DNA of 64,000 nt from NCBI GenBank assembly GCA_963667725.2, contig CAXXHO010000003.1, positions 1,600,001-1,664,000 on the forward strand, read 5' to 3'. Positions 20,307 to 43,793 of the stretch are shown piece by piece. The first letter of the stretch is position 1. Each line of letters opens with the position of its first letter. Source of the DNA: Treponemataceae bacterium (GTDB taxonomy: Bacteria > Spirochaetota > Spirochaetia > Treponematales > Rectinemataceae). The translations under genes were made by a program, and so were the position numbers. The notes under the pieces are model-generated. The model did no database searches. It saw nothing but the letters and a program-made list of their open reading frames with translations, and was not told the DNA's origin.

Positions 20307-20308
20307 CT

Positions 20309-21417: not shown

Positions 21418-21419
21418 GC

Positions 21420-25468: not shown

Positions 25469-25554
25469 GGGAGCGTAGAGACCGGGGAGCACGTCCATGG
25501 CGCGTGTGGATCCGGCCTTGACCGGTGAAGAGGGTTCAACTCCCTTCGCTCCGA
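25469..25554 (+). ncRNA. Second degenerate tRNA-like element
   Basis: GGAGCG/CGCTCC acceptor, GAGGG-TTCAACT-CCCTT T arm, non-canonical D and anticodon arms. Confidence 0.45.
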
Positions 25555-25571
25555 TACGCTGGAGGTAATCG

Positions 25572-26045
25572 ATGCTGAACGGGTTGTCACAAGAGCAAGC
25601 GTATCGAAACAGGATTTCTTTCTCCGTCGAGGAAGCCGCCAAGATTTGGGGCTATAACCCCAGGACGGTTTGGAAGAGAATCCGTTCAGGCCAGCTCGCG
25701 GCCGCAAGGATCGGTACCAGGATCCTCCTTCCCCGGATTGAACTTGAGAAGCTCACCGGCCCCCTCTCTCCCCTCCCCGTGGACCAAGGCCCTGCACTCC
25801 TCTCCGTACTAAGCAAGGACTGCGGTATCAGCGATCGCTTCTTAAGGGAACTAATCTCTACAGGCGCTCTCAGCATCGAAAGCAGGGTCCGTCCGATCAA
25901 AATAGACCGCCAGCACATCGTCGATTGGCTCTCCTCCCATACCGACACTTCTGGCGCCCGGGTCCGTCCCGATCTCGCCATGGGCGTCAAACAGAGAAAC
26001 CGGCAGCGGCGAAAGGCAGCCACAACAGAACGGAGCGCCCCATGA
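25572..26045 (+). CDS. Excisionase-like HTH DNA-binding protein
   Basis: SVEEAAKIWG...TVWKRIRSGQLAAARIG..ILLPR motif. Confidence 0.8.
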   Translation: MLNGLSQEQAYRNRISFSVEEAAKIWGYNPRTVWKRIRSGQLAAARIGTRILLPRIELEKLTGPLSPLPVDQGPALLSVLSKDCGISDRFLRELISTGALSIESRVRPIKIDRQHIVDWLSSHTDTSGARVRPDLAMGVKQRNRQRRKAATTERSAP

Positions 26046-26332
26046 CAAGGACGCAGTGGCGGCTACGGGACCTTAGCCTCTGGCTCAGGAAGAATCGCGA
26101 GTTCATCGCCGATCTCATGTTCGCCCTTCTTCTGTCGCTCGCCCTCACCTCCCTTGGGAAATGCTCCCTTAAGCGCCAGGAAGCCAGCTTTGAAGCTATC
26201 ACCCTGCAGGCAGTCCATATGCCCTGCCCCGATGGTTCCACCCTCGTCACCTTCATGCAAGGCGGGGCAATCCAGGGGCAGACCTTCGCCGACCGGGCCT
26301 CCGCCCTCGCCTTCGCGGAGGCGCTCCGGTGA
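26042..26332 (+). CDS. Hypothetical membrane protein
   Basis: Coupled ORF with one TM segment. Confidence 0.5.
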   Translation: MTRTQWRLRDLSLWLRKNREFIADLMFALLLSLALTSLGKCSLKRQEASFEAITLQAVHMPCPDGSTLVTFMQGGAIQGQTFADRASALAFAEALR

Positions 26333-26667
26333 CGAAGGAAAAGAAAGCAGCGCTTAGGGCGTCCCTCTTCGTGGAGGTGTCAAAAGAGGCGGAGCTCCTA
26401 GAGAAGAACGTGGGGCTTCAGCAGTTCCGCATGCGGCCAAAGGACTTGAGCCGGAGCGAGGCGATCGTTGAGGCGATGATCGCCCGAACCCAATGCACTG
26501 ACCGAATGCACGAGGGATCCATGACATGGTTCCACCTGCTCAAGGCTGCCTTTACCGAAGTCTTCGCCGAGGAAGAAAGGGATCTCACCGCGGAGCAGCT
26601 CGTGAAGCTCTGCGCCACAGCGCTTTTCATGCTCGAATCGATCGAAAAGAGGAGGAAGCACCCATGA
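26329..26667 (+). CDS. Hypothetical phage protein (MazG-like helical pattern)
   Basis: TWFHLL...EVFAE...QLVKLCATA pattern; coupled ORF. Confidence 0.5.
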   Translation: MTKEKKAALRASLFVEVSKEAELLEKNVGLQQFRMRPKDLSRSEAIVEAMIARTQCTDRMHEGSMTWFHLLKAAFTEVFAEEERDLTAEQLVKLCATALFMLESIEKRRKHP

Positions 26668-27179
26668 AGCCAACAACGGGAGTACTCGCGATTACCGCCG
26701 AGCGGATCCGTCAGATCCAGGACGAAGGATTCCTGCCCGACCATGATGATGCACACCGGAACGGGGAGCTTACCCAAGCTGCCGCGGCCTATGCGTACCC
26801 GGAGCAAGAGGGCGTGACCATGCTCTTCCAGGACTTCCGTGGCGGAGTACTCTTCCCCGCGTCCTGGGACTCATCATGGTGGAAGCCGGGGACGGGAGCT
26901 TTCCTTGCGGGACGGAAGCGCGAGCTTGAGAAGGCTGGCGCACTCATCGCCGCCGAATGGGACCGGCTCGAACGCCTCGAAGAAAAGCTTCAAAGCTTCG
27001 ATGGTAAGAACAATGATTCCTTATCCTGGATCGACTGGTACGAGCTGCTGCAGGAGTACTCCTTCGTCCTTGGCCATGGAAGAGAGCTTATCACCGGATG
27101 CGGCGATGAATGCTGGAAGAGTCTCTATAACGAAGGCTTCGACATTCCGGAAGCATTCCGGGCAGGATTCGAGGAATGA
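26664..27179 (+). CDS. Conserved hypothetical phage protein
   Basis: AER.RQ..EG..HDD.H..GEL..AA..YA...WWKP...KAGALI.AE..RL pattern, recalled from phage proteins. Confidence 0.65.
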   Translation: MKPTTGVLAITAERIRQIQDEGFLPDHDDAHRNGELTQAAAAYAYPEQEGVTMLFQDFRGGVLFPASWDSSWWKPGTGAFLAGRKRELEKAGALIAAEWDRLERLEEKLQSFDGKNNDSLSWIDWYELLQEYSFVLGHGRELITGCGDECWKSLYNEGFDIPEAFRAGFEE

Positions 27180-27658
27180 GCGTCTCCCCGGCCGAAGCGG
27201 GCTTCTTCACCCTGAAGGACGGCATCTACGCCGCCCCGCTCGCTTCTCCAGGAGGGGCGAGCGCGATGTCCTTCTTCGTCCAGGGGGATCCCCTTTCAGC
27301 ATCCTATGGGAGCCGAATCGTTTCTGCCGTCTCGCGCATGAAACGTACCCCATTTGCCGGTGCCCTCGAATTGAACCTGCAGTTCCTGTTCAACCGTCCG
27401 AAGAAGGACTCAGTCAGGTTCATACGCGAGCATGCCTCTTTCATCGCTTCCCTCGAGGAGACAACCAGCCGGACGCTCTCCCGGGCAAGTACCTGGCTCG
27501 ATGAGACGCAGGTGATACGCACCCAGTCAGTAAAGCGCTATGCCCTCCCGGAAGAAACGCCGGGGGTGCATATAGAAATCGTCACCTTGCCTCAAACCCT
27601 GGAGCGGGGGTTCTCAAAAACCTCCTTACCCCGTGCCAGGGCACGAGGCTCTTTTTAG
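27176..27658 (+). CDS. RusA-like resolvase fold protein (possibly degenerate)
   Basis: FFVQGDP, L.L.F.F.RPK and QV....KRY...GV.IEI patterns; catalytic Asp motif not evident. Confidence 0.45.
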   Translation: MSVSPAEAGFFTLKDGIYAAPLASPGGASAMSFFVQGDPLSASYGSRIVSAVSRMKRTPFAGALELNLQFLFNRPKKDSVRFIREHASFIASLEETTSRTLSRASTWLDETQVIRTQSVKRYALPEETPGVHIEIVTLPQTLERGFSKTSLPRARARGSF

Positions 27659-27669
27659 GACCATTTGAA

Positions 27670-27870
27670 ATGACCGTAGTGATTGATGGGAGAAAGATCA
27701 CGGGGCTCACCCGGATCTACAACGAACTGGGCGCGAGTACGCCTGAAGCGATGCAGGAAGCACGATCCTGCCTCGATACGGGGCGCCCCTACAAGGGCCA
27801 CACCATCGCGCACGAGGTGCCGGAAACGCGTCCTTCCGAACCCGGCGCCCGTCCCGCAGGATGGTGGTGA
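27670..27870 (+). CDS. Hypothetical protein
   Basis: Short ORF in the operon. Confidence 0.45.
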   Translation: MTVVIDGRKITGLTRIYNELGASTPEAMQEARSCLDTGRPYKGHTIAHEVPETRPSEPGARPAGWW

Positions 27871-27872
27871 GC

Positions 27873-28376
27873 ATGCGTATTCCCCTTTTGGAACGAATAA
27901 AGACCTTCTTCAAGGCACAGACGGGTCATGTCCGGGTGGGAAGAACCTGGATCTCTACGAGCGAGTTCCTGGCCAGTGAAGAAGAAAAACGGCAGGCAAG
28001 GATTCCTCCTATGAACGATATCTCGGGGGAGGCAGTCCTTGAGGTGCTCTTCGAGCCTGAGCGGCAGCTTGAGCTCTTCGAAGGCGTTCCCACCTGCGGG
28101 GCGACGATCAATGCGCGGTTCGCCGAGTTCCATAAGAAGAATCCTCATGTCTATAGGATCCTTGTACGCCTCGCCCTCGATGACGCTGCTTCAGGAGGCA
28201 GGCGAGGCATAGCCGCCCTCTTTGAGGATCTCCGCGATAGCGAGATCCCCACGGACCATGGCCAGGAGGTGTTCAAACTGAACAACAGCTACGCCTCACG
28301 GTACGTCCGCCTGATGATGAAAAACGAGCCCCGTCTTGTGGGGCACTTCGAGACTAGGGAGTTGAAAGCGCTATGA
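27873..28376 (+). CDS. Hypothetical phage protein
   Basis: F..FH..NP.VY...FKLNN.Y...Y.RL.M...P.L.G.F..R pattern, recalled from phage proteins. Confidence 0.6.
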   Translation: MRIPLLERIKTFFKAQTGHVRVGRTWISTSEFLASEEEKRQARIPPMNDISGEAVLEVLFEPERQLELFEGVPTCGATINARFAEFHKKNPHVYRILVRLALDDAASGGRRGIAALFEDLRDSEIPTDHGQEVFKLNNSYASRYVRLMMKNEPRLVGHFETRELKAL

Positions 28377-29947
28377 ATAGAGAAGCACCGGCTACCTCGA
28401 TGAATGAAAAGATCCAGCATATCCCGCTCGAGAAGATCGTTCCCTCCCCGAAGAACCGAAACGTCGGCGGGTTCGACAAGGAGAAGCTCGAGCAGCTCGC
28501 CGACAGCATCCGCTCGATCGGCGTCCAGCAGCCGGCGATTGTCCGCCCCGCAGGCGATCACTTCGAACTGGTTGCAGGCGAGCGCCGGTGGCGAGCGTCT
28601 TCCCTCGCAGGAGTGCCCACGCTCCCCTGCATAGTCCGGGACCTCGATAACGCGGCCGCACTCCATATCCAGCTCATCGAGAATCTGCAGCGGGAAGACA
28701 TCCATCCGCTCGATGAGGCCGAAGGCTTCCATAGGCTCATCGAAGAAGGACATTACGAGATCGAATTCATCGCGAAAGAAACAGGCCGGTCCGCCGTGTA
28801 TGTCTATCAACGGCTCAAGCTTCGAAAGCTCATTCCTGCAGCCCGTTCCCTGCTTGCCGGCGGGAAGATTTCCGCAGGGCATGCGAATCTCATCGCGCGG
28901 CTGCCTCCTAAGCAGCAGCATGAGGCGCTCAAGATTCTGGACCGTCCATGGCTGGTGTCGATCAAGGACTTTGACGAACAGATCAGGCACGAGATCCTCA
29001 TGGAACTTTCCCGAGCAGCCTGGAAGCTTCATGATGCCGACCTTCTTCCTGCCGCGGGGCCATGTTCTTCCTGCTCGAAACGGACCGGCGCCGAACCACA
29101 GCTCTTCGCGGAACTTGGCAAGAAGGACTGCTGTGCGGACAAGACCTGCTTCGAGGCAAAAGAGAACGCCTTCATCGCGAAGAAGCAGGCAGCCCTTGAG
29201 GGGATCGAGCACCTCGAAGTCCTCGATGGGTATTCCGAAGAACGCGAGGCCATCGCGCTCGCCCCGCACGAATGGACCGAATGCAAGAAGAGCGACGAAG
29301 GAGCGGTCCGCGTCCTCGTGGTCGGCGGGAACAAGCCTGGGAGGCTCACCTGGGGGAAGAAACGGGCGTATGTAAAGACGCAGGCACAGAAGAAGGAAGA
29401 GCGTACTAAGGAGAAGCAGATCGAGAAGGCCCGGAACGAGTATGCCCTCTCCCTCTATGAAGGGATCCTCGAGCGGTTCAATGACGTCGAGGGGCTCTCC
29501 CTTCCCCTGCTTCGATCCTCGCTCCTGCAGGTCTGGAAGAATCTCGGCTTCGAGGGGATGAAACGGATCGCGAAGCTCGAAGGGTGGGCAGATCCGGACT
29601 ATAACAACACCTTCCTAAAAAACCACCTGGAGACGCTCAACCGCGGGAGCCTTGAGCGGCTTCTTCTCGTTTTCGCCTTCGGTATCCACAGCAAGGTGAA
29701 TCAGTACAACAGGGGGATCGACAGGGCGCTCATCGAAGGCGCGACAGCCGCAGGCATTGATGCCGCCCCGCTCCTCGAGAAGATCGCCGGAGCCTACGGC
29801 CTGACCGCAGATGATATCGACCCGCGGGGCGCCCCCGGCGAGAAAGATGATGCCAACGATGACGCCACTGAAGATGAGGCGACTGAAGACGAGAATCCTG
29901 ACGATGAAAGTGCCCGCGATACGACGCCTGCGGAGGCAACCGTATGA
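28373..29947 (+). CDS. ParB/RepB/Spo0J family protein
   Basis: LADSIRSIGVQQP, LVAGERRWRA and ENLQRED motifs; CxxC. Confidence 0.9.
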   Translation: MNREAPATSMNEKIQHIPLEKIVPSPKNRNVGGFDKEKLEQLADSIRSIGVQQPAIVRPAGDHFELVAGERRWRASSLAGVPTLPCIVRDLDNAAALHIQLIENLQREDIHPLDEAEGFHRLIEEGHYEIEFIAKETGRSAVYVYQRLKLRKLIPAARSLLAGGKISAGHANLIARLPPKQQHEALKILDRPWLVSIKDFDEQIRHEILMELSRAAWKLHDADLLPAAGPCSSCSKRTGAEPQLFAELGKKDCCADKTCFEAKENAFIAKKQAALEGIEHLEVLDGYSEEREAIALAPHEWTECKKSDEGAVRVLVVGGNKPGRLTWGKKRAYVKTQAQKKEERTKEKQIEKARNEYALSLYEGILERFNDVEGLSLPLLRSSLLQVWKNLGFEGMKRIAKLEGWADPDYNNTFLKNHLETLNRGSLERLLLVFAFGIHSKVNQYNRGIDRALIEGATAAGIDAAPLLEKIAGAYGLTADDIDPRGAPGEKDDANDDATEDEATEDENPDDESARDTTPAEATV

Positions 29948-30795
29948 ACCAGGATCAGGTGAAGGAGAAGCTCCTTTCTTTGAAGGTTCCCTGCCCGGAC
30001 TTCACCCTCGTGTTTTCAGGCAAAGCCTCCTGCCGAGTGAACGGCCTCTACAAGCCCGCCCTCGCCTCGATCGTCCTTCACAACAAAAATTTCACGAACG
30101 ACAACGCTCTCATGTATACCGCCCTCCACGAGTTCACCCATCACCTTGCACATACGCGAAACCTCGTCTCAGGAAGGAATGCACACTCGATCGCCTTCTG
30201 GGCGCTTTTCCACTCCCTTCTGAAGCTCGCGATCGAGGAAGGCGTCTATGTGGATCCCTACCTCGAGGACGAAGCCTTGAAGGCGAAACGTGAAGAGATC
30301 CTCGAACTCCAAAGGCAGCAGAACGAACTCAATAGAAAGCTAGGGCAAGCAATCGCCGAGATGGAGACCCTCTCCCAGGAGAAGGGCGCCCGCTTGGAGG
30401 ACTTCCTCGATCGTCATGCACGGATCCCAAGGAACCATGCCCAGAATCTCGTCAAAGCGCAGCACAACGTCGCGTTGAGCAATGTCGAGGCCGCAGGCTC
30501 GCCTTCCCTCGTGGAAGCGATCGTGAACCAGGGCGAGGACATGAGCCATGCGGCCGCTATGGCGAACCAGGGATGCTCGATCCAACAGATCAAGGCGGTT
30601 TGCCGACAGAAGAAAGTAATCGATCCCCGTTTCGACCCGGGAGAGGCCCAGACGGATGAGGAGAGGCTTGAGAAAGCCAAGAAAGAGCTGTCCGGGGAAT
30701 ACAAGAAGAAAGAACGAGTGGAGCGAAGGATCGACGAGCTTTCGCGCGAGATCGAGGTCCTCGAGGATCCAGGACAAGGAGAAGCCCATGGATAA
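29944..30795 (+). CDS. HExxH zincin (SprT-like) domain protein with coiled coil
   Basis: ALHEFTHH...H motif. Confidence 0.6.
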   Translation: MNQDQVKEKLLSLKVPCPDFTLVFSGKASCRVNGLYKPALASIVLHNKNFTNDNALMYTALHEFTHHLAHTRNLVSGRNAHSIAFWALFHSLLKLAIEEGVYVDPYLEDEALKAKREEILELQRQQNELNRKLGQAIAEMETLSQEKGARLEDFLDRHARIPRNHAQNLVKAQHNVALSNVEAAGSPSLVEAIVNQGEDMSHAAAMANQGCSIQQIKAVCRQKKVIDPRFDPGEAQTDEERLEKAKKELSGEYKKKERVERRIDELSREIEVLEDPGQGEAHG

Positions 30796-30912
30796 AGCAT
30801 TGTTGTTCCTGTTGATCTTGAAGCGGCTAATCCCCGCCCTGGTCAAGATTCAGGAAGACCTGGAGAAGTATTCCGCCGTCCTCACCGAAGGGCTCTCAAA
30901 GGACAAGGCGCC

Positions 30913-31272
30913 ATGAGCAAAGGGCAACTCGAGCTTGACATGACGGAGCGGATCCCCAAGGAGGCGCTCCACGCCGAGGATCCCTATGCGCTCGATTCCA
31001 GGATCCCGGTGGAGGAAGTCCCCTTCCAGTATGGAAAGGTCAAGCTTCGGAAGCTCGAGAACGGTCTCTGGATATGGGGCATGCGCTATGCCCTCCCCGT
31101 GAAAGGCTGCGGTGGTGATTTCCAGCCCTTCAGGGCACATGGACCTGCGTATGCGGCCCATTCCCGTGAGGAGGCGATCGGCAATGCGATCTCCTGGCTG
31201 AAGGAACGCTTCGACCTTAGCGCGGTGAGAATAGTTCGCGATTTCATGGATTCGAGCGTGGGCATGTCTTGA
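30913..31272 (+). CDS. Hypothetical protein
   Basis: Coupled ORF. Confidence 0.5.
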   Translation: MSKGQLELDMTERIPKEALHAEDPYALDSRIPVEEVPFQYGKVKLRKLENGLWIWGMRYALPVKGCGGDFQPFRAHGPAYAAHSREEAIGNAISWLKERFDLSAVRIVRDFMDSSVGMS

Positions 31273-31388
31273 AGGCAGCCCAGCTCGCCAAGGTGACACA
31301 GGGTGTTTTCCCTCCTCGGGGAGGAACTTGTTGGTCGTGCTTCGAGTGTACGCCTTGAGGAGGGCTTTTTAATGGAAGGAGGGAGAGC

Positions 31389-31637
31389 ATGAGGATTGGA
31401 TCGTTGTGGATTAGGGAGAAGGAAGGAAAGAAGGTGACGGGTGGGGAGATCTCCTCGGATTCAGGGATCAACCTGCCCGCCGGGATGAAACTCCAGTGCA
31501 GACTCGTGAGGAATGAAAAGAAGCAGCCGGGCGACAGGTATCCGGATTTTTATGTTGAAGCCTGGGTGGCTCGGGAAAAGAAAGCTTCAAGTACCCCCAG
31601 CGGGGCGCCGCATAATGACGATGACTACCCGTTCTAA
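31389..31637 (+). CDS. Small SSB-like (DUF736-like) protein
   Basis: IGSLW...N.K....YPDF motif and acidic DDDYPF tail. Confidence 0.6.
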   Translation: MRIGSLWIREKEGKKVTGGEISSDSGINLPAGMKLQCRLVRNEKKQPGDRYPDFYVEAWVAREKKASSTPSGAPHNDDDYPF

Positions 31638-31653
31638 GGAGAAGGCGAACACG

Positions 31654-31941
31654 ATGAAAACTGAATCGATCGGTCCCACGCAGCGAAAGGTACTCGAGGT
31701 CATGGCGGACTTGGAATGGTGGACGGTCCGGCGCCTAGTAGAATCGCTTCACAGTACTGGCGCAGAGAAGGCGGTATTCAGGCTCTTCGAGCGGGGCTTC
31801 GTTGAGAAACGCCTTGGACGCGGGCTTCCTGTGCACCATGAAATGAGGCTCACCCTTGAAGGTGTCGATGCGTACCTCGAAGGTTCGGAGAACCCCTCCA
31901 AGGCAGAGACTCAGGAGCTCGAGCCAAGGCTCTTTGCATGA
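31654..31941 (+). CDS. Winged-helix hypothetical protein
   Basis: AAGGAG RBS; wHTH-like pattern. Confidence 0.5.
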   Translation: MKTESIGPTQRKVLEVMADLEWWTVRRLVESLHSTGAEKAVFRLFERGFVEKRLGRGLPVHHEMRLTLEGVDAYLEGSENPSKAETQELEPRLFA

Positions 31942-32354
31942 AGCTGTACCATTTCACGAATCGGGAATGCGCGCGAAGGATTGCTCAGGAAGGGATCACG
32001 CATGGTGGTGTCTATCTTCCCTATAGCGCCGGATCCCGAGTCTTCCGAGGCTTTCTCTGGCTCACCGATGATCCTCGCTTCGAAGCACAACACTGGGCCA
32101 CGAATCTGTCAGGAAAATGTGGCGACCGCACACAAGTGCGCCTTACGATCGAGCTGCCTGAAGGAACAAAGATAAAGCCCTGGAACACTATCGCGAGAAC
32201 GCTCTTTCTCTTGAGCCCCACCGATCTATGTGCCTTCAACCTCGCGGGGCATTCCGACGGTTCGCACTGGTACCTCTACCGCGGGGTGATCCCCGCTTCC
32301 TGGATTATCGAGAAAACGGAAAGAACAAAGGAGTATGTCCATGGCAAGTCTTGA
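31938..32354 (+). CDS. Putative ADP-ribosyltransferase-fold protein
   Basis: LYHFT...I...GI...LWLT pattern. Confidence 0.4.
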   Translation: MKLYHFTNRECARRIAQEGITHGGVYLPYSAGSRVFRGFLWLTDDPRFEAQHWATNLSGKCGDRTQVRLTIELPEGTKIKPWNTIARTLFLLSPTDLCAFNLAGHSDGSHWYLYRGVIPASWIIEKTERTKEYVHGKS

Positions 32355-32943
32355 AGTAATCGAGATCAAGCCCATCAACCTCAAGTACACGGAGATCAGG
32401 ATCATTGGTGACACGCCTCTCATCGTTCACGCCTGGAGCGAGAAGATCAAGAAAGAAATGCTCGATCGGCAGATGAAGAAGGCGAAAAACGCGAAAGGTG
32501 CTAAGAACCCAGAAGAGGAGTATCTTGCTTCATTCTATCGGCTTCCGGATGGTAAGTACGGCTTCCCCGCAATCGGCTTCAAGGCCGCGGCCGTATCCGC
32601 CGGCGGACGGTTTGCCGAAGGTATGAAGATGACGGAGCTTCGGGGATCCTTCTTCGTCCTGGGAGAAGAGGGGAGCGACCTCGTCCCCATCGAGGGCGAG
32701 CCTTCCATGAGGGAGGACACGGTCAAGGTCGGGATGGGGGTCGCGGACATACGCTACCGGCCCGAGTTCAGGGTCTGGGCGACGACGATACGGGTGAGAT
32801 TCAACGCGGACAAGATCAGTCTCGAGCAGCTTGTGAACCTGTTCAATCTGGCGGGATTTGGGGTTGGGGTTGGCGAGTGGCGCCCTGAACGCGACGGTCA
32901 ATTTGGCTGTTTCCATGTCGAGGTCAATGCCCCTCAAGGGTAA
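32341..32943 (+). CDS. Standalone RAMP/Cas7-like RNA-binding protein
   Basis: TPLIVH, FPAIGFKAA and C-terminal Gly-rich loop GFGVGVGEWRPERDGQFG in RAMP-like order; adjacent GGY-NN array. Confidence 0.65.
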   Translation: MASLEVIEIKPINLKYTEIRIIGDTPLIVHAWSEKIKKEMLDRQMKKAKNAKGAKNPEEEYLASFYRLPDGKYGFPAIGFKAAAVSAGGRFAEGMKMTELRGSFFVLGEEGSDLVPIEGEPSMREDTVKVGMGVADIRYRPEFRVWATTIRVRFNADKISLEQLVNLFNLAGFGVGVGEWRPERDGQFGCFHVEVNAPQG

Positions 32944-32964
32944 TGCCTCGTTGGAATATGACTC

Positions 32965-33035
32965 GGTTAGGTGCGGCTAGGCCGGGAAGGGCATGGCTTT
33001 GTAAGGCAAGGCATGGCAGGGACGGCAGGCAGGGG
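32965..33035 (+). ncRNA. GGY-NN pentamer repeat array (candidate guide RNA)
   Basis: GGTTA GGTGC GGCTA GGCCG GGAAG GGCAT GGCTT TGTAA GGCAA GGCAT GGCAG, then GGAC GGCA GGCA GGGG; intergenic. Confidence 0.7.
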
Positions 33036-33135
33036 ATCATGGAAGAGGCGATCGTACCGGAAGAGGAAAAGCGCAACGACGCTCTTTCTTCTGGCGCGAG
33101 GCGCGAAGGCTCTGGATAAGGGCAAGGAGTGGTAC

Positions 33136-33834
33136 ATGGTGTACAAGTGGAAGGAAGACTCGCCCCTGGTGAAGAAAGCGGATCCTCAGGCGATCGCGCG
33201 AGAGATCCTGACGATCGGCGGGGCGTCGGTACGGCCGAAGGATCTGGTTCAGGAAGCGTACTTGAAGAAAAACTCCGAACTCCACAAGTGCTTTGAGTGG
33301 GACAATACGGTCGCGGCCATCGAGTATCGAAAGTCCCAGGCGAAGGAGATCCTCTACTCGCTCGTGAAGGTGGAGAGCACGAAGCACGGCACCATGGAAG
33401 TGCTTGCTTTCGTTGAAAGCAGCCCCGTCTCGCACTCCCCAGAGACCGTACACTTTTCCGTTCGCGATGAGACAGAACGGCAGAAACATGAGACGAAGAA
33501 GCCCAAAGAAGCGCCCCCCTCGTTCCACCAAGGGCCGTTTGTGGCCATGGATGATACGGTGGGTACCCCTCCCCCTCTAAAGCGATCCTACGACGATCCT
33601 GAGCCCGCGACAGCGAAAGAACGAGAACAGGCGCCCGGCGAAGCGAGCGAGGAACGAGAAATTCAGGAAGGGAGTGACATGGAGGAGCTTATCAGGAGGC
33701 TTTCATCGATCCAGGATGAGCTCATGACGTATGGACGGTTTGAGGATCTCGGGGAGAAGCTTGGGGCATTGATCGACGAAATAAAAGAAAGAACGACTCG
33801 CGGGACTTCCAAGCTTGTTGCCAGTGTCGCGTAA
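33136..33834 (+). CDS. Conserved phage protein downstream of the RAMP-like gene and array
   Basis: AAGGAG RBS; LH.CFEWD...AA.EYR..QA motif. Confidence 0.65.
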   Translation: MVYKWKEDSPLVKKADPQAIAREILTIGGASVRPKDLVQEAYLKKNSELHKCFEWDNTVAAIEYRKSQAKEILYSLVKVESTKHGTMEVLAFVESSPVSHSPETVHFSVRDETERQKHETKKPKEAPPSFHQGPFVAMDDTVGTPPPLKRSYDDPEPATAKEREQAPGEASEEREIQEGSDMEELIRRLSSIQDELMTYGRFEDLGEKLGALIDEIKERTTRGTSKLVASVA

Positions 33835-33846
33835 GGAGCATGCATC

Positions 33847-35136
33847 ATGGGAAGAATACGAAGTATAAAACCAGAATTCCCGCAATCGGAGAGCATTGGC
33901 AGGATGACCCGCGATGCCCGGCTTTGTTTTATTGAACTATGGACCATCGCCGACGATGAGGGAAGACTCCGGGGAAACACGCGGATGCTCGCGAGTTTAC
34001 TGTTTCCCTATGATGATGATGCCCCTGGCCTCATAGGCTCATGGCTTTCTGAAATCGAACGGGAAGGCTGTATTGTGCGCTATGAGGGTGCAGGACAGCA
34101 TTATGTTCAGGTATCGAACTGGGCTGCCCACCAGAAAATTGACAAGCCTTCACCGTCAAAGTTCCCGCCTCCCCCTGCAAAAGCCGAGACGCCTTCAGCG
34201 GCTGAGAGTACTCCACGCCAATTCGCCGAGGATTCGCGAACTATCGATACATCCTCGCGACCATTCGCCGAGGATTCGGCGAGTATTCCCCGAGGACTCG
34301 ACGAGGATTCGGCGAATGATCGAAGAACCTTCGCGACGGATATGGATCTAGGAAAGGATCAAGGAGAAGAAGGGAAAGGATCTTCCGCGCGCGAGGATTT
34401 ATCAAGCGAAGAGGGCGAGGAAAACAAAGAAATAATGACGGAGTGTCTTGTCCAAGAAGGTCATGATTCGTTTATGTTGGATCCGTCACTAGCAACGATG
34501 AAGCAGGATCATGACGATGTCATGACGAACCATGACGATATCATGAGAGAGAGCAAGCCTACTCAGCAAGAAGAACAGAAAGAAGAGAAGACGCGCATGT
34601 GTGAGGATCAGACTCCAATCCGAAAGACTTCATCCCGCGGGGCGTCGGCGAATGAGCCCGTCATCTTTTCGGAGCTTCCTCAATTCAAGATCGCCGGCTA
34701 TTGGTTCAGAAGGTACAATCAAGTGACGGGGATCACGCTCCTTCCTGATGAACGGGCAAACCACGCGGCAAAGGAGCTTTATGAAGCCTTAGGGAAGAAC
34801 AACACACTCGCGCAGCGCGCGGTGGATTACTACTTCGAGAACTGGCGAGAACTCTGGTTCGCTCAGAAGCGTATGCCGAAAGAGACGCCTCTTGAGAAAC
34901 GACAGTGGTCCTTCACGTTCATAAGCTTCACGAAGAACATCCAGGAGATTCTCTCGCTCATGCAAGCCTCTCCAACATCAACGAGTCCACGGACCACGCC
35001 TGAGCGTTGGAGTACAGGGATATCCTTCGATGAGGAGCACATACCCGAAGAAGAACGGGTAGAAAATGCGCGAAAACTATCGGATTTTGTACAGAATCTG
35101 GGCAAAACGAAGCGGGTTTCGTTGCTGGCAAATTAA
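33847..35136 (+). CDS. Phage replication initiator/replisome organizer
   Basis: MGRIRSIKPEF..SE...ARL.FI.LW..ADDEGR N-terminal family pattern; internal iterons. Confidence 0.75.
   Translation: MGRIRSIKPEFPQSESIGRMTRDARLCFIELWTIADDEGRLRGNTRMLASLLFPYDDDAPGLIGSWLSEIEREGCIVRYEGAGQHYVQVSNWAAHQKIDKPSPSKFPPPPAKAETPSAAESTPRQFAEDSRTIDTSSRPFAEDSASIPRGLDEDSANDRRTFATDMDLGKDQGEEGKGSSAREDLSSEEGEENKEIMTECLVQEGHDSFMLDPSLATMKQDHDDVMTNHDDIMRESKPTQQEEQKEEKTRMCEDQTPIRKTSSRGASANEPVIFSELPQFKIAGYWFRRYNQVTGITLLPDERANHAAKELYEALGKNNTLAQRAVDYYFENWRELWFAQKRMPKETPLEKRQWSFTFISFTKNIQEILSLMQASPTSTSPRTTPERWSTGISFDEEHIPEEERVENARKLSDFVQNLGKTKRVSLLAN
34221..34340 (+). repeat. Iteron-like ~11-bp repeats inside rep (putative ori)
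   Basis: ATTCGCCGAGG / ATTCGGCGAGT / ATTCCCCGAGG / ACTCGACGAGG / ATTCGGCGAAT. Confidence 0.65.
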
Positions 35137-35163
35137 TAGATGTACACCATGTGAGGAGCATCA

Positions 35164-35355
35164 ATGACCCTTGAATACGAAGATATCGAAGAGCTGAGGA
35201 AGGCGCTCGCAAATGTTGAATTCGGCAAGGTGGAGATGCAGATTCATGAAAGTATCATCATTTCAATAACCGTTACCACCGTTAAGAAGAAGCCAGTACC
35301 CAAGAAGGATCGAATCGTAGTACATACGCCCTCAAAACCATTAAAATTGGTTTAA
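35164..35355 (+). CDS. Small DUF2292/YezD-like protein, copy 1
   Basis: L..V.FG.VE..IHE pattern; paralog at 41922. Confidence 0.6.
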   Translation: MTLEYEDIEELRKALANVEFGKVEMQIHESIIISITVTTVKKKPVPKKDRIVVHTPSKPLKLV

Positions 35356-35401
35356 CCTTTAAATCCACAAATTTATAAGGTTGAAGCAATTGTTAGGCTT
35401 T

Positions 35402-36217
35402 TTATCCTTTATTCTCTTGTCCGCAATCTGTACCATCATTACTACTTTTCTCAGCTTCTTTTATTTTACTTTTTTGTTTTTCAATTTTCTTAATAGTTTT
35501 CAAATATTTATCATTAGTCTCAATTGCTTCAGGTGTATCTATAATTTCTCTTTTTAATACATCATTTACTATTATCGTATCTATTTCATCTACTTCAAAT
35601 TTAATTGTAGGATCAACTTTTCTAAATTCTCTTTTGATTGCTTCTATTACATATTCAGACCTAATAAATGCTCCTATATAATATTTATTAACAATCATCT
35701 TATGCTGTGTAAACTCATCTATTGCATTCTTCTTAATTCCTTCTTTACAAATAATATATAATTTATCTAAATCATTTCTATTTTTAATTTTTACATCTAA
35801 AATATTAAACTCACATACAAAATCAGTTTTTATTGGCTTTTCAAACTTAACTTTATATACTTTCCATACCACACCATTTGTAAGTATAATCCACTCATTT
35901 CCATTATTAGCACCGTAATCAAGTACTTGTTGATAATGCTTATCGGCAAGAGTCGTTCCAATTGCCTTTACTTCAATAAGGAACTTTACACTACCATCAA
36001 TTTTTACTGCTAAATCACAATATGTACTTTTTATGCAATATTCACGAGTAACTTCAGTATATTTATCATATCCAAAGAGAAGCGTTAATATATCTGTAAC
36101 TATTACAACAGTATCAGCTTCATTTATATCTCTATCTTTAGCTTGTTCTAGAATTTTTTGAATTTTCCCTAAATTTTCTTTGAATCTTTCAATAACCTTT
36201 ACATTGATTTGTGCCAT
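35402..36217 (-). CDS. Cassette: HsdR N-terminal/restriction endonuclease-like protein
   Basis: INEADT, CDLAVK..LIEVK, ILTNG motifs. Confidence 0.75.
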   Translation of the reverse strand: MAQINVKVIERFKENLGKIQKILEQAKDRDINEADTVVIVTDILTLLFGYDKYTEVTREYCIKSTYCDLAVKIDGSVKFLIEVKAIGTTLADKHYQQVLDYGANNGNEWIILTNGVVWKVYKVKFEKPIKTDFVCEFNILDVKIKNRNDLDKLYIICKEGIKKNAIDEFTQHKMIVNKYYIGAFIRSEYVIEAIKREFRKVDPTIKFEVDEIDTIIVNDVLKREIIDTPEAIETNDKYLKTIKKIEKQKSKIKEAEKSSNDGTDCGQENKG

Positions 36218-36343
36218 ACAAAACTCCTTTGATAAAATGCTTAAATTGCTAATCTTTAAAATTAGCTTTGTCTCGCGCCGAAAGCGTCATCCTAACATTG
36301 GCAATTAAAGTTTAGTATGTATCTTTGCGCGCCGAAGACGTCA

Positions 36344-36468
36344 ACCTAACATTGGCTTGACCCTTAACGCCAGATCCTGAGCGTAGCGAGGGATTGGCGT
36401 GGTTTATGCATTGTTGTTCTGCACAAACCATGACAAAGGGCGTTATAGGGTTGAAGCATTTGTTAGGC
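36344..36468 (-). repeat. attC site (representative of the family)
   Basis: Minus strand GCCTAAC...GTTAGGT (RYYYAAC/GTTRRRY) with a long imperfect palindrome. Confidence 0.88.
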
Positions 36469-37221
36469 GATAGCACTTCTTCTTTTCTTACACTTTATCA
36501 CTATATAAATTGGCTCATTAAGTAAATCTTCGTATCTATCATTATTACTCTCTCTCCATTTTACTGGAGGTCCTGGTTCTTGTATCTCTTTTACTTCTAA
36601 CCCAGCTTCTCTTAGCCCATTTATATAGTCAGAAAAAGTATAATGATAGCTTTTGCATACAACTCCATTCTTACTCTTTCCATATTTTGTCCATGGTTGA
36701 TAGTACTCTCGTATCTCTTTATGTAGATATCGTATTTTCCATTCTCCATCTTTATCAAATGGGTATTCTGCAGTATATAGTGGATGCATAGCCGATAGGA
36801 TAACAATTCCATTTTCTGCAAGAACATTATGGATACTTCTAAAAGCTTCTTTAAGATCCGGAAAGTAATGTGTGGCTGTTGATGAAAAAACAAAATCAAA
36901 CTTTTCAGACACTATCTCACTGATGTCTTCTACTGAACACTTTTGAAACTTAATCCGATAACTTTTATTCTTATTTTTAGCATAAGCTAACATTTCTTCA
37001 GATATATCTATTCCAAGAATAGATTTTGGCTCATATGAATCAAAGTAGAACGAGAATCTTCCAGTTCCACATCCAATATCCAAGATTGTTTTATCTTTCA
37101 ATATTGGAAGCATTTCTTTAATACAAGGCCATTCTATCTCATTACTATATGAATTTTCTCTATTCGTAAAATCTTCATAATCTGAAGTCATTGAATCCCA
37201 TATCGTTTCGATGTCTTTCAT
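36463..37221 (-). CDS. Cassette: class I SAM-dependent methyltransferase
   Basis: LDIGCGTG, DISEEML. Confidence 0.88.
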   Translation of the reverse strand: MKDIETIWDSMTSDYEDFTNRENSYSNEIEWPCIKEMLPILKDKTILDIGCGTGRFSFYFDSYEPKSILGIDISEEMLAYAKNKNKSYRIKFQKCSVEDISEIVSEKFDFVFSSTATHYFPDLKEAFRSIHNVLAENGIVILSAMHPLYTAEYPFDKDGEWKIRYLHKEIREYYQPWTKYGKSKNGVVCKSYHYTFSDYINGLREAGLEVKEIQEPGPPVKWRESNNDRYEDLLNEPIYIVIKCKKRRSAIA

Positions 37222-37420
37222 ACTTCCTGTTTCCTAATGAAAAGTATTTACTTTCTTAGCGCCTAAGGCGTCTGCCTAACGATGGCTTGACCTGCGAAAG
37301 GCGTTGGCGCGCAATTTGCATTGCAACTCACGCAAATTGCGTGACAATACCCTGAGTCAGGTCGAAACGATTGTTAGGCGACTTCATTTTTTAAGAATTA
37401 ATGAAATAATGCTTTATATA

Positions 37421-38095
37421 TTAATCAGAGAATCTGCATGCTCCCACAAATGCATACCCAAGCCTCGTAAACTCAACTCGTTGGTATGAAAACCATTCTG
37501 TACTACTACTACTCTCATCCCCCATTAAATAAGAACTCTGTGATGCTCTGCAAAGATTGAGTCTTACTAGGTTACCCATTAATAATTCATACTCCCATGT
37601 AGCTATCTTAAATACTTCTTGAATTTCGTTGAATGTTGCAATCCAACCAATTTGTTTATGAACACGATCTGTCATCCATTCCAAAATTCTTGCCTCAATT
37701 GAGGAAATCTCAGAGAGTATTTTTGGAAATGCAGGGGGAACTTTTTCGGGTTTCTCAGCAGCACTAGCTAATAATGCAGCCCATCTGTTTTTCATATCAG
37801 CTTCTTCTTCTAATGAACCCGCTTCAAGTAAGGGAGCAACTACTTTTGGTAGGAGACGTTTCGGTTCAATGCCCTTCTTCTCAAGAAAGGCTTTTGCTTT
37901 TAAAATTAGGTTTACTTTGTTCTTGAATCTCCAAAAGGCAACTGTATCACCAATTAATCCACCAGACTGTTCTAGACCAGGAACTATCAATTTATCAAGA
38001 TAATCTTTGGCGATCTTGGCCGTCTCTTCAATTCCTTTCTCAAGTGCAATACGCATCGGATCATTGGGTTGATGATTGTCACTCATACTACTCAA
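37421..38095 (-). CDS. Cassette: Abi-alpha/DUF4393-like protein
   Basis: PLLE..S.EE...M...WAALLA...PAF..IL..IS..EARIL pattern. Confidence 0.65.
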   Translation of the reverse strand: MSSMSDNHQPNDPMRIALEKGIEETAKIAKDYLDKLIVPGLEQSGGLIGDTVAFWRFKNKVNLILKAKAFLEKKGIEPKRLLPKVVAPLLEAGSLEEEADMKNRWAALLASAAEKPEKVPPAFPKILSEISSIEARILEWMTDRVHKQIGWIATFNEIQEVFKIATWEYELLMGNLVRLNLCRASQSSYLMGDESSSSTEWFSYQRVEFTRLGYAFVGACRFSD

Positions 38096-38219
38096 TCCTT
38101 AATATTTAGCTCCGTTTTTAGAGGCTCATTTTTTTTATTTATTTCAAATAATTCAAAGAAGAAATATACTTTGCGCAATACGCGTCCGCTTAACATCTCT
38201 TTATATATTTAATTAATGA

Positions 38220-38501
38220 CTATAGTTTACCTTGGAGTTTATGAGATCTTTGCCAGCCTGCTGCACTGCGAGATTGCACATAACATATAAGGAGATCGGC
38301 AACAGATCTTGATTGAACCCAACATATTTTTGAAGTTGCTGATGCGTCACTTTGAACAAAACACCATATGCCATCTACACCATCTGCGGGTCCGCGTGAT
38401 TCCGATATACAAACGAGCAAATCAGCTACAGATCTAGATTGTACTTCGCATACTAGATAATCTGCTGATGACCTAGATTCTTTTACCCTAATTAATGCCA
38501 T
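38220..38501 (-). CDS. Cassette: small repeat protein (DUF6150-like)
   Basis: Repeated V.SRS.ADL.V units; GGAGG RBS. Confidence 0.6.
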   Translation of the reverse strand: MALIRVKESRSSADYLVCEVQSRSVADLLVCISESRGPADGVDGIWCFVQSDASATSKICWVQSRSVADLLICYVQSRSAAGWQRSHKLQGKL

Positions 38502-38674
38502 AGTTCCTCCTATTTTAATAAGCGTGAAGCGTCCGCCTAACATTTTCGCTTAACCTTTAAATCCTGGCCTGAGCTACTGCGAAGGCTTGGCATGGTTTGT
38601 GCATTGTTGTTCCTGCACAAACCATGCCAAAGGATTTATAAGGTTGAAGCAGTTGTTAGTAGGTTACTCGAAAA

Positions 38675-40150
38675 TTAAGTATCAATTCTTAATTTATGAT
38701 TTTCTTCAGCTTTTTGTATATCTTTTGAGCTAATAAATTGACTAGATAGACTAAGCCACTTCAATACTTCAAAGTATGCATTATAATATTTTTTACTATC
38801 AAATTTAAAATAAACAAAATTATTTATATTAGAGGGTATTATAACTTTATCTTCAACAAGTACAAGAATTTTTTTTGAATTTTCTAATCCATAGTGTCTT
38901 AAGAAAAATCCTATTTCGTGATACACATTTGGACGCGAATAATTATTTTTTTTCTCAGTTATATCATTTTTAAGAATTGCAATAGTAAGTGTAGATTCAA
39001 GCATTGTTGAATATATTTTTTTTGATAATTCTTCCCCAAATCCAACTTGAACAATATTTGTTTTTGCTCCCTTATCAAAGAAATCTTCTTTAAGCCACTT
39101 ACTTAATTGAAACGCATATTCATTAGGTATTGTCTTTCCTTTCTTCTCATCATATTCCCAACTACATGTAATAAATATTTTTTCTTCTGTTGGTATAGAT
39201 ATTACTTCTCTTACATTGTTCTTTAAAACATATACAAGACTTGCTTTCCATTTATTTAAAGCAATTTCATCTAAAGAATTTTTTTCATTATCGATACTTT
39301 TTGAATTAAAAAATGTTGCTTTACAATTATAATTAATGTCTTTAGGATCCTTTATTCTTTTCAAACCGTCTTTCTTATTACTTTTATAGTATGTAGCATC
39401 ATCTGATATCATAGTACTATCTAATGTCCATAAATATCTCCAATGCTCTGCTAGAGAATTAAAAAGTTCAACGTCATCTGTTTCATTTGCACAAAGCATT
39501 GGATAATTTAGTAATAATTTATCAGAATTTATATTTTTTTTTGTTAGTATATATGCATCAGAATAAATATTATTATTAATTTTTAATATAGATACATTTA
39601 AGCTAGAAGTTGTAAATCTTACCATTACTTTATTTTCTTCATTATCAAAAGAAAGTAATTCTTCATTTATATAACTATGAATTGTTTTCAGAGAATTATT
39701 AAGATTTCTTACTGTCATTGAACCCCAAAATGTTCTTTCATCTATTTCATCAACTAAATCAAAACTTCTATAATATAATGGTTCATCAATAGTAGTTCTC
39801 TTTCTGCTATTTTCAGCTTGAAGAATAGAATACGTATAATCTGAAAATGGATAAACAAATAAAAGCCTAAATCTTACAGCAATCCCTTGATCGTTAATTG
39901 TTTTTATATTTTTTATTGTTTCTTGCAGTTTTTTAGCAATCGATGGATCGGAAAACATTCCCCCTAAATCAAAAAGAATGCTACCAGATAAACCTGCATA
40001 ATCTATTGTAGCTATTTTCTTATACTTACTTTCTTCTAGATCTAGTGGGTTTTTTTTGTCGTAAGCAGATTTAATTAATGAGTCAAGACATAAATCATTA
40101 ATTATTTTTTCATTTAACTCTTTTGAATATCTACTTTCATAATATTTCAT
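38675..40150 (-). CDS. Cassette: protein with C-terminal TIR-like nucleotide-binding domain
   Basis: IFITCS...RPNVYHEIGFF...IPSNI motif. Confidence 0.65.
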   Translation of the reverse strand: MKYYESRYSKELNEKIINDLCLDSLIKSAYDKKNPLDLEESKYKKIATIDYAGLSGSILFDLGGMFSDPSIAKKLQETIKNIKTINDQGIAVRFRLLFVYPFSDYTYSILQAENSRKRTTIDEPLYYRSFDLVDEIDERTFWGSMTVRNLNNSLKTIHSYINEELLSFDNEENKVMVRFTTSSLNVSILKINNNIYSDAYILTKKNINSDKLLLNYPMLCANETDDVELFNSLAEHWRYLWTLDSTMISDDATYYKSNKKDGLKRIKDPKDINYNCKATFFNSKSIDNEKNSLDEIALNKWKASLVYVLKNNVREVISIPTEEKIFITCSWEYDEKKGKTIPNEYAFQLSKWLKEDFFDKGAKTNIVQVGFGEELSKKIYSTMLESTLTIAILKNDITEKKNNYSRPNVYHEIGFFLRHYGLENSKKILVLVEDKVIIPSNINNFVYFKFDSKKYYNAYFEVLKWLSLSSQFISSKDIQKAEENHKLRIDT

Positions 40151-40373
40151 TTTTCACTCCTAAAATAAATTTCTTTGGTTTTGATACTTGTATTTATATA
40201 TATATCAAACTTAAATATTTTTTCTTGCCCGAAGGGTCAACCTAACATTGGCTTAACCCTTAACGCCTGTTCCTGAGCGAAGCGAAGGATTGGCGTGGTT
40301 TTTGCATTGTTGTTCTGCAAAAACCATGACAAAAGGCGTTATAGGGTTGAAGCATTTGTTAGATTTCTTTTAT

Positions 40374-40835
40374 CTATTTAGGAAATACTAAATCTACTGT
40401 TTTAAAAGACTCTGGTAATTTTAAATCTTTTACTAATCCATCATATATAATCATTACAATATCATTGTATTTATAATATTCTTCTTTTTGTATTTGTATT
40501 CGTTTTATCCATTTATCTTTTACATATTTATTTTTGATGCTTTTATCATACTCATCTACATCATGAGTTTCTAGCAAGATACCATTTTTTCTCATTAATC
40601 CAATTCTTCCAATAATTTCTTCATTCTTATTGCTACATTCAATTACTATTATTGAGTGATCACCATTTTTGCTTCCAGTAAATTCAATTATTCCTTTTTC
40701 ATAAGGGATAATGAATTTTTTCTTATTATCAAAAAGCAAATCATATTTACTACAACTTCCTAGAGATACACATAACAACACAACTTGAAGGAAAAGAATT
40801 AGAAAACGCTTCTTATTTCTAATATTTTTACTCAT
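40374..40835 (-). CDS. Cassette: hypothetical lipoprotein
   Basis: Basic N-terminus, hydrophobic stretch, LGSC lipobox. Confidence 0.6.
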   Translation of the reverse strand: MSKNIRNKKRFLILFLQVVLLCVSLGSCSKYDLLFDNKKKFIIPYEKGIIEFTGSKNGDHSIIVIECSNKNEEIIGRIGLMRKNGILLETHDVDEYDKSIKNKYVKDKWIKRIQIQKEEYYKYNDIVMIIYDGLVKDLKLPESFKTVDLVFPK

Positions 40836-41041
40836 AGAGTTTGCCTACTTTATCTGAATAAAATATTCTCTATATAGATTTGCTTACTTCTATGGAAACA
40901 AATATTACTTCTTTTAACCGAACTCTTGTTAACCTAACACTAACAATAAAATGATCAGAAAATTGCTTTTATTACCTAATTCACTAATTTTGCAGTGCCA
41001 CCGAAATTATGCAATGTTTTATTTCTGCCCGCGCAGCGTGA

Positions 41042-41555
41042 ATCTAACAATAATTGGATTGTTCCAGATAAATTTGAAATACCAAGAATTACCTTTCTTT
41101 GTAATGGGATAGATAAGTTCTATCCTAAAAAATAGAATATTTTTTGGAAAAGAAATACAAATTTCCTGTTATACGAATATATCTTTTATACTGTTAGGCA
41201 TAAATTCTAAATGATAATAGTATATTTATAGTGGTAGTATCATTTTCTCAGGAAAGGCAACTATGCTTCTCATCTCTCTTCTAATGACTATACTAGGTAA
41301 TGTTCTTTCCTAGCAGCCCTTCCCGGCTGTTACTGAAAGACGCTTGATAACAACACATGAGCGTGTTCTTCGCCGAAACAGAATGAATACGCTCGGGGAA
41401 CTTTCCTAAACTTTAATATTTTATGTTTCTTTGTTATCATAAAGAGTCTATCTGGAAAGTCAATCTGAAAACGATATTCTCTATTGGTTAATGTAGAGTA
41501 ATCAACTCTTTTTACATCATTAATTATTACTATATCAGTAATCATTAAGCAGGCA
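41042..41555 (-). promoter_or_regulatory. attI/Pc-like platform 1
   Basis: GTTAGAT core at the array head; TTGACT-N16-TATGAT at 41436-41463; homologous to 54058-54570. Confidence 0.6.
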
Positions 41556-41921
41556 AAACCTCATAAAAGGAAAGGAGCATCATGTTCAGAGACTCTCTAC
41601 ATCATAGATTGAGTACACTTTTCTACATCCAGCCTAACCTGCAATCAGGAGAGATTGGCGGATTTGAGCACACTTCATCTACTCGATCGTCATAAATAGC
41701 ATCTTAGCGAGCTTCTCTAATATACCATCCTCTTCTTCTGTAACGACTTATCAGGTAAATCAAGAACAAAAGTATTGAGGTACCCTTCGAAAGCAAATAT
41801 AAATCCTAAGTAAATCAAACAAAAAACGTTAGATACTATCAAATTTTAAGCTGAATTAGGGCAAAACAATGCGATTTTTACTACAGGCACCTCGTAGTAA
41901 GGCACTGTGTAAGGAGAATCA

Positions 41922-43509: not shown

Positions 43510-43793
43510 AGGTAAAATCCTTTATCAAGAGAATACTACTATACGGCTAAATCTTTTTTAAAGAGCAGTGAAAATGATATTACCTTTAACCCTTACTATT
43601 ATCCTTTTTTCTTCTTGCGCGAAGCGTCAATTTAGCATTCGTTTAGCCTACGAGCGAATTCCCGAGCCACGCGAGGGATTGGTGTCATTCTTGCTCGCTT
43701 CTTACTAATTATGGCTTTCTTCTCTTCTTCCTTTCAACCTCACCAGAATAATGACAACGTGCGAGTCAGGTTGAAACGGTTATTAGGCGATAA

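Follow-up and report, generated by a model that had tools for sequence, protein, structure and literature searches.

A GGY-NN repeat array beside a small RAMP protein gene on an integrated island of a Treponemataceae bacterium: a probable VIPR locus

What is the function of a small gene whose product carries RAMP-like motifs, when the gene stands by itself and is followed by an array of units with a period of five nucleotides? Such a gene lies in a 64,000-nucleotide stretch of the genome of a Treponemataceae bacterium (assembly GCA_963667725.2, contig CAXXHO010000003.1, positions 1,600,001 to 1,664,000 of the forward strand), which we call the window and in which coordinates are counted below. 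A sequence-only reading of the window by a model had regarded the locus as a candidate non-CRISPR RNA-guided system and had suggested a likeness to VIPR (Viral Interference Programmable Repeat). We conclude that the locus is very probably a VIPR system, composed of a vipr gene, one vrRNA (32965-33032) as its guide, and a conserved candidate accessory gene, and that it is a member of the published kind. What we observed are the homology and fold of the protein, the statistics of the array, the conservation of array and protein together, the borders of the carrier island, and a match of the guide of a sister locus to this island.

The available parts of the 2026 bioRxiv preprint on VIPR (10.64898/2026.04.26.720920) describe a Vipr protein, a vrRNA and vap genes, the vrRNA consisting of 9 to 16 YNNGG units and a tail, and a caller that needs at least 4 units. 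According to the same preprint and its companion, likewise available in part (10.64898/2026.04.26.720927), one Vipr protomer occupies each unit, and the NN pairs bind a double-stranded DNA (dsDNA) target reading NNx, by which transcription is silenced. The loci are described as mostly viral or proviral and as belonging to seven types with accessory genes vap1 to vap6; Escherichia phage SUSP1 and a Pseudomonas fulva prophage provide the type II examples, staggering of arrays by 1-nt overlaps occurs in some types (fig. S18 legend) and a single vrRNA in some (10.64898/2026.04.26.720920). A natural target is defined there by at least 80% of the NN bases with a 1-nt skip.

The protein links the locus to this kind. 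The vipr product, whose ATG has AAGGAG 8 nt upstream by direct reading, matched the Vipr protein of SUSP1 (PDB 36pp_D) at an E value of 7.1e-8 with its single sequence and of 1.9e-8 with a profile of 33 homologs; this was the sole match among the sequences of solved structures, and its significant stretch covers residues 127 to 195. It also matched phrog_4652, a PHROGs family of unknown function (E, 2e-36), and 7532 homologs were found at an E of ≤1e-3 in a large protein collection, while no model in Pfam or PADLOC matched it. In a Foldseek search with the AlphaFold2 (AF2) model (pLDDT, 81; pTM, 0.75), Csm3/Cas7 chains came out on top (e.g., 6xn3_F; E, 4e-6; TM, 0.54), and the best of the 53 matches at an E of ≤1e-3 were Csm3/Cas7 subunits of type III CRISPR effectors, the library predating the release of the Vipr structures. 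The model contains a β-hairpin at residues 121 to 143 and a glycine-rich loop, AGFGVGVGEWRP, at residues 171 to 182. As modeled, Vipr of the window is a protein of the Cas7/Csm3-type RAMP fold, with an RRM core, a thumb hairpin and the glycine-rich loop. The motifs that the sequence-only reading had called RAMP-like, namely, TPLIVH (residues 25 to 30), FPAIGFKAA (residues 75 to 83) and the loop, are indeed invariant or nearly so among the 33 aligned homologs, and the RAMP fold that it expected from a structure prediction was obtained. Besides, the residues that contact GGY in SUSP1 Vipr (H17, R138, D177, W178 and R179, according to the available part of 10.64898/2026.04.26.720927) align to H30, R140, E179, W180 and R181 of the window protein with four of five identical, and all five of the latter are invariant or nearly so in the 33-homolog alignment.

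A shorter form of vipr was encountered on contigs of three runs (X5, X6 and X8) from two studies, in which position 32489 is joined to 32625-32627 with an in-frame loss of 135 nt; run X7 contains a full-length vipr. The loss would remove the first RRM helix; it could be a genuine deletion or could have arisen in assembly.

The array begins on the same strand 21 nt past the stop codon of vipr. Direct reading gave the 11 in-register units at 32965-33019 as GGTTA GGTGC GGCTA GGCCG GGAAG GGCAT GGCTT TGTAA GGCAA GGCAT GGCAG, in agreement with the sequence-only reading on the 200-aa gene, the spacing, the nine GGY, one GGA and one TGT starts and the variable dinucleotides. We add a 12th unit, GGACG, at 33020-33024, so that the complete NN series is TA GC TA CG AG AT TT AA AA AT AG CG. 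Nine GGY in 11 registers is the top count of the window on both strands; all starts that score at least 6 lie inside the tract, the maximum of the minus strand is 4, and the best count among 20,000 mononucleotide shuffles of the intergenic stretch (192 nt) was 6. Tandem Repeats Finder did not report the array, because its units, with three of five bases in common, are only about 60% alike.

The GGCA-rich tail and hairpin noticed earlier resolve into two overlapping GGCAG units (33024-33028 and 33028-33032), each sharing 1 nt with the preceding unit, and a predicted 21-pair hairpin that lies between the array and the next gene. The hairpin may cap the vrRNA or form its 3' tail, or it may act in processing or attenuation. 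It is not followed by a T-run, and terminator calling found no terminator there. Three of the 21 pairs differ in a relative (L082) whose Vipr is 94% identical, and all three are still standard pairs, a single comparison of little weight. More distant relatives do not have the hairpin, their accessory gene following 12 to 25 nt after the array. A small open reading frame (ORF) across the hairpin (33039-33119) was rejected as a gene, since the 94% relative lacks its stop codon. In the sister locus described below (L105, minus strand, 9780-9800), a small hairpin of other sequence, ACUGUG-GAAA-CACAGU, is located between the array and the ribosome-binding site of the accessory gene.

Does such an array accompany the gene elsewhere? 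On viral contigs 274 relatives of vipr were confirmed, and the best 80 were analyzed. At least 7 of 10 in-register GGY were found on the vipr strand in 72 of these 80 loci, and the opposite strand never exceeded 5; under a stricter chain rule, a chain occurred on the vipr strand in 70/80 and on the other strand in 0/80 (251 chains versus 0). In five of the eight loci below 7/10 (L016, L031, L034, L039 and L070) the flank that follows vipr is shorter than about 650 nt, and the remaining exceptions (L030, L069 and L076) have full flanks. Over 2239 units, the entropies at unit positions 1 to 5 were 0.22, 0.62, 1.12, 1.91 and 1.98 bits; the low values at GGY are partly built in by the picking of chains, whereas those at NN, near-random at 1.9 to 2.0 bits, are not. 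The pattern for which the sequence-only reading had proposed to test homologs, a constant GGY with a variable NN, was thus found. Internal degenerate units are common in the relatives, G occupying unit position 2 in 89% of the 2239 units. Of 23 metagenome relatives, 14 carry a chain on the vipr strand and 2 on the opposite strand. The 9 that lack one on the vipr strand lie mostly on short contigs, but two of them (L097 and L098; 39% identity) lack it despite full flanks. Near relatives come from samples of freshwater, groundwater and sediment. A pattern scan of genome contigs for related loci yielded no confirmed relative.

In the relatives the array may follow vipr immediately, follow the small gene next in line, or lie a short way ahead of vipr. 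Their successive vrRNAs share one G at the junction (...GGCAG/GCA...), and this junction, which ends or joins vrRNAs in relatives, closes the tract of the window twice. Long trains of vrRNAs were seen in some relatives, with 17 chains in both L088 and L089 and an array of about 700 nt in L010 and L012. Close relatives of the window locus (L082, L091 and L092, with 94 to 99% identical Vipr) and run X7 have the same array, with C>T at 32992 as the sole change, by which GGC becomes GGT and GGY is kept. Compared with the 94% relative, a single change falls in the 68 nt of the array and 10 fall in the 103 nt behind it, a sign of selection on the guide. Similarity to the contigs of L082 and X5 to X7 begins at 32375, just within vipr, and extends to about 35258, while the DNA upstream differs. 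The block of vipr, array, accessory gene and replication gene appears to move as a cassette.

The third component is the gene next downstream, whose ATG is preceded by GGAG. Its homolog adjoins vipr in 35 of the 80 viral loci (tblastn, E of ≤1e-5), and as a conserved neighbor of vipr it is a candidate vap. The upstream gene (31938-32354), by comparison, was a partner of vipr in 0/80 viral loci. The product matched phrog_15946 (E, 5e-9), and its Atlas matches were limited to unnamed viral clusters; Pfam matched 0 of 37 members of the family, and PADLOC gave no match. In the AF2 model (pLDDT, 75) the N-terminal domain is confident. Foldseek with the full model found no match at an E of ≤1e-3, and a wide VIA search with the model found matches limited to the C-terminal helical hairpin.

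The same genome contains a second VIPR locus, on the minus strand at C3:507152-508548 (L105, 9153-10549). Its Vipr is 88% and its accessory protein 64% identical to those of the window, and it is part of a 10-kb module whose gene order follows 25530-35330 of the window collinearly at a DNA identity of 78 to 93%. The blastn alignment of the two modules breaks at 32918-33124, exactly across the array. The sister array has 11 units (C3:507915-507861) with the NN series TT CC GA TT TA AT GA GC TG GT AT; in a unit-for-unit MAFFT alignment over 11 units, only 8 of 22 NN bases agree with the window, whereas the flanks are 79 to 89% identical.

The sister guide points back to the island of the window. 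Its top site, and its only site with at least 18 of 22 NN bases in the 4.22-Mb genome, lies at 31539-31570, inside a small gene encoding an 82-aa protein, with the skipped base on codon position 3 (wobble). When the sister guide was shuffled 3000 times, a score of at least 18 arose on 10 occasions in the island and on none in the 11-kb module. The site encodes Y51 to A61 of the protein, including the invariant P52, D53, E57, A58 and W59, and the sister module has nothing that corresponds to the stretch. Against the homologous gene in viral locus L001 the sister guide scored 18/22, a value equaled by 2 of 100 shuffles. The nine-unit core of the guide had one exact match in the viral-contig collection, which fell in a 74%-identical homolog at the same motif and phase and scored 19/22; a further homolog, P0127 (FPDFYIEAWVA), would score 20/22 judging from its amino-acid sequence. 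Wobble-phased targeting of conserved codons is described in the available part of 10.64898/2026.10.15.759431. No Pfam or PHROG family matched the 82-aa protein, and an identity as DUF736 was dropped for want of support in either. We presume a resemblance between its DDDYPF end and the C-terminal tip of bacterial single-stranded DNA-binding protein. It is possible, if distinctly tentative, that two sister islands each carry a VIPR system with a private guide, and that one guide is aimed at codon positions 1 and 2 of a small gene present only in the other island. Virion genes were seen in neither sister island, the second island being only partly annotated.

By homology to the SUSP1 system, each 5-nt unit would be bound by one Vipr protomer, which would hold the GGY and leave the NN pair exposed, and the NN pairs would base pair with a dsDNA target of the form NNx NNx ..., skipping one base per unit. 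Such binding would block transcription of the target and would likely be used against a competing mobile element; the second VIPR system, with its different guide, may in the same manner recognize the conserved small gene of the window island. RNA expression, filament formation, DNA binding and silencing would accordingly be expected at the window locus by analogy. The standalone RAMP protein on a constant GGY scaffold and the gapped code of NN pairs, both put forward in the sequence-only reading, agree with the architecture now in print (10.64898/2026.04.26.720920 and 10.64898/2026.04.26.720927, as far as available), with the homology to SUSP1 Vipr, and with the fold and the arrays of relatives. 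The non-CRISPR, RNA-guided character of its proposal is therefore supported, but the kind of system is a published one and not new. The 1-nt gap of its example pattern is the published NNx rule, and since that rule fixes the gap at 1 nt, the varied gaps that it suggested as well are unnecessary.

Several observations weigh against the assignment to VIPR or against a working guide. The significant overlap with SUSP1 Vipr spans about 65 residues in the C-terminal third, D177 of SUSP1 is replaced by E179, and the pairing of H17 with H30 rests on a stretch that is not significant alone. Of the 12 units, three depart from GGY. The 18/22 of the sister guide is not significant as a score, being reached genome-wide by 8 of 30 shuffles; its weight comes from the location of the site and the two further matches in homologs. 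Above all, the search of phage and host sequences for a gapped match, which the sequence-only reading had recommended, found no convincing target for the window guide. In its own genome, the best scores were 18 to 19 of 24 over gaps 0 to 3, the only full match being the array itself at gap 3; with the 1-nt skip the best was 18/24, the level of shuffles (17 to 19), and the nine GGY units alone scored at best 15/18. The region around the sister island gave at best 18/24, at a GC-rich site 30 kb away, and the 103 relative loci gave at best 17/24, again at shuffle level. No site with at most 3 mismatches was found in 69 family genomes or in 401 order genomes. Exact matches in viral contigs to units 1-10, 3-12, 2-11 and 2-10 numbered 0, 1, 0 and 0, scans of exact sub-patterns being blind to targets with scattered mismatches, and units 3-11 had 40 exact matches in genome contigs that were scattered over no common gene family. 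Because of these scattered matches, a 20/24 match in L081 was judged to be chance and rejected as the target; there the skip hits the first codon position, in a phage of 40% GC. A target in the own genome is not expected, since the preprint, in its available part, finds no self-targeting on source contigs (10.64898/2026.04.26.720920).

The missing target leads to the question of whether the locus is a decaying or idle copy, of VIPR descent but with a guide that no longer works, which the island carries as a passenger. The units GGAAG, TGTAA and GGACG, which depart from GGY, and the vipr variant with the 135-nt in-frame skip on contigs of two studies would be in keeping with such decay. However, the vipr frame of the window is intact with all conserved residues present, the array has changed far less than the adjoining 103 nt, with GGY kept at its one change, and internal degenerate units are common in the relatives as well as frequent in VIPR according to the available part of the discovery paper (10.64898/2026.04.26.720920); we consider an idle copy improbable. 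Less probable still is that the vrRNA directs Vipr to DNA of the island or host as a regulator or decoy instead of to a competitor. The island does have repressor-like and excisionase-like genes, and vrRNAs that redirect Vipr to host decoy sites are described in the available part of 10.64898/2026.10.15.759431, but no site above 18/24, the level of guide shuffles, exists in the 4.22-Mb genome.

Two further explanations would deny the array any role as a guide, and we give both next to no credence. The periodic stretch might be coding, if the downstream gene started at GTG 32971 with an extended N terminus, and the frame is in fact open from 32971 to 33834. Yet 44 distinct homologous ORFs, mostly of 150 to 175 aa, all begin at M-[VI]-[YF]-x-W, which corresponds to ATG 33136 behind its GGAG; the sister accessory gene has an in-frame TGA directly ahead of its ATG, a 5-nt period does not suit codons, and arrays stand upstream of vipr or after vap in relatives. 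The array is thus not the N terminus of the next gene, the outcome that the sequence-only reading had named as damaging to its proposal. Alternatively, the protein might be an orphan Cas7-type subunit working for a CRISPR-Cas system at another place in the genome, with an incidental repeat beside it; the closest solved folds are Csm3/Cmr/Cas7 chains. The sequence, however, matches Vipr and no Cas protein, no PADLOC cas model matched it, and the same-strand GGY array goes with the gene in the relatives as counted above. As had been stated before, the window contains neither a CRISPR array (Rfam and Tandem Repeats Finder) nor cas genes: PADLOC found none among 23 ORFs, save for a weak match of an HD domain between a Cas3 model and a PAS/HD protein. 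Rfam at gathering scores found only two tRNAs in the window and, at 30000-36000, nothing except a chance microRNA match.

A VIPR system thus remains the reading that we prefer, and its likeness to the published systems is manifold: a small standalone RAMP protein related in sequence to SUSP1 Vipr, 11 to 12 same-strand GGY/NN units (published, 9 to 16) whose NN vary strongly from relative to relative, a core of two genes of which the second is a candidate accessory gene, a mobile element as host, and no CRISPR array or cas genes in the window. Unlike the SUSP1 system, the window has a Vipr that is only distantly related, and because of this distance the locus probably belongs to another of the seven types. 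It differs further in having one guide only, situated between vipr and the accessory gene, in a tract that ends in 1-nt-overlapping GGCAG units and a long hairpin, with no pseudoknot tail of the SUSP1 kind seen, and in its carrier, an integrated island that yielded no virion genes. The 1-nt-overlap junction of the staggered vrRNA arrays (fig. S18 legend, in the available part of the discovery preprint) is common to the relatives of the window Vipr and the end of the window tract, although the window has a single guide and not a train. Like the Cas7/Csm3 backbone subunits of class 1 CRISPR-Cas, the protein is predicted to combine the RRM core, thumb hairpin and glycine-rich loop, but no repeat-spacer array for CRISPR RNA and no partner Cas proteins occur in the window, and VIPR guides read two bases in five, whereas Cas7/Csm3 effectors read five in six. 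The E. coli phage-satellite VIPR (10.64898/2026.10.15.759431, in its available part) is similar in that a guide passes over the wobble base and matches codon positions 1 and 2 of a conserved gene in a related element that resides alongside. In the present case, unlike that one, both parties are sister islands with a VIPR system of their own in an environmental bacterium, the predicted target is the gene of a small protein and not a recombinase, and the relation is predicted from sequence.

The locus is carried on an island of about 39.8 kb integrated at tRNA-Pro, as delimited by the exact 44-bp direct repeats (Table 1). The island is a mosaic of about 57% GC at 24 to 35 kb, close to which the genome stands with 56% GC, versus stretches of 30 to 40% GC. 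The GC-rich module encodes repressor-like, excisionase-like helix-turn-helix, RusA-like and ParB-like proteins besides Vipr, the accessory protein and the replication initiator. The low-GC stretches (35400-54000 and 18000-23000) hold genes that look like acquired defense and cargo genes. Low-GC cargo includes Abi_alpha (37421-38095), a TIR-domain protein (38675-40150), a type II DNA methylase (54973-55809), several S-adenosylmethionine-dependent methyltransferases, a deaminase, two transposases and an ABC transporter pair. Virion genes were absent among the island ORFs scanned. The only tandem repeat that Tandem Repeats Finder reported in the window is an 11/22-nt repeat, ATTCGCCGAGG, with 4.8 copies at 34263-34315 inside the replication-initiator gene; it may represent iterons or merely a repeated FAEDS peptide.

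Table 1. Features of the putative VIPR locus and its carrier island (positions in the window)
Feature	Position	Strand	Remarks
tRNA-Pro	16302-16374	+	ARAGORN; left end of island
44-bp direct repeat, left copy	16332-16375	+	Exact match to 56110-56153
Tyrosine integrase	16496-17917	+	PF00589 (E, 3e-10); phrog_1 integrase (E, 1e-22)
ParB-like protein	28373-29947	+	PF02195 (E, 2e-24); PF17762 (E, 6e-14); GC-rich module
Conserved 82-aa gene	31389-31637	+	C-terminal DDDYPF (DDDIPF in homologs); 9 full-length homologs, 49 to 89% identity
Predicted target site of sister guide	31539-31570	+	18/22 NN under the 1-nt skip rule; inside gene 31389-31637
vipr	32341-32943	+	200-aa RAMP protein, Vipr homolog; ATG 32341, stop TAA 32941-32943
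vrRNA repeat tract	32965-33024	+	12 five-nt units: nine GGY, two GGA (GGAAG, GGACG), one TGT (TGTAA)
Terminal motif GGACGGCAGGCAG	33024-33032	+	Two GGCAG units, each with 1-nt overlap with the preceding unit
Hairpin, 21 pairs	33048-33104	+	Predicted fold, between array and next gene
Candidate vap	33136-33834	+	232 aa; conserved N-terminal domain (residues 1-95), disordered linker, C-terminal helical hairpin (AF2)
Replication initiation protein	33847-35136	+	phrog_2149 (E, 1.5e-33) and related families; directly after candidate vap
44-bp direct repeat, right copy	56110-56153	+	Right end of island

The window locus leaves the understanding of how VIPR works unchanged. It shows that a VIPR locus is recoverable from reading raw sequence alone; a language-model survey, in the available part of its report, recovers VIPR arrays through the 5-nt period (10.64898/2026.10.21.760802). 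What it adds is a natural case in an environmental bacterium: a single guide and a conserved candidate accessory gene, on an island whose borders are defined, together with a sister system in the same genome. The sister guide points at the window island, and the pair is suited to a bench test of VIPR between related islands. If the proposed relation is true, VIPR would serve exclusion or dominance of one island over another within one cell, beyond the conflict of phage and satellite, and the long hairpin behind the single guide would represent a tail type of its own.

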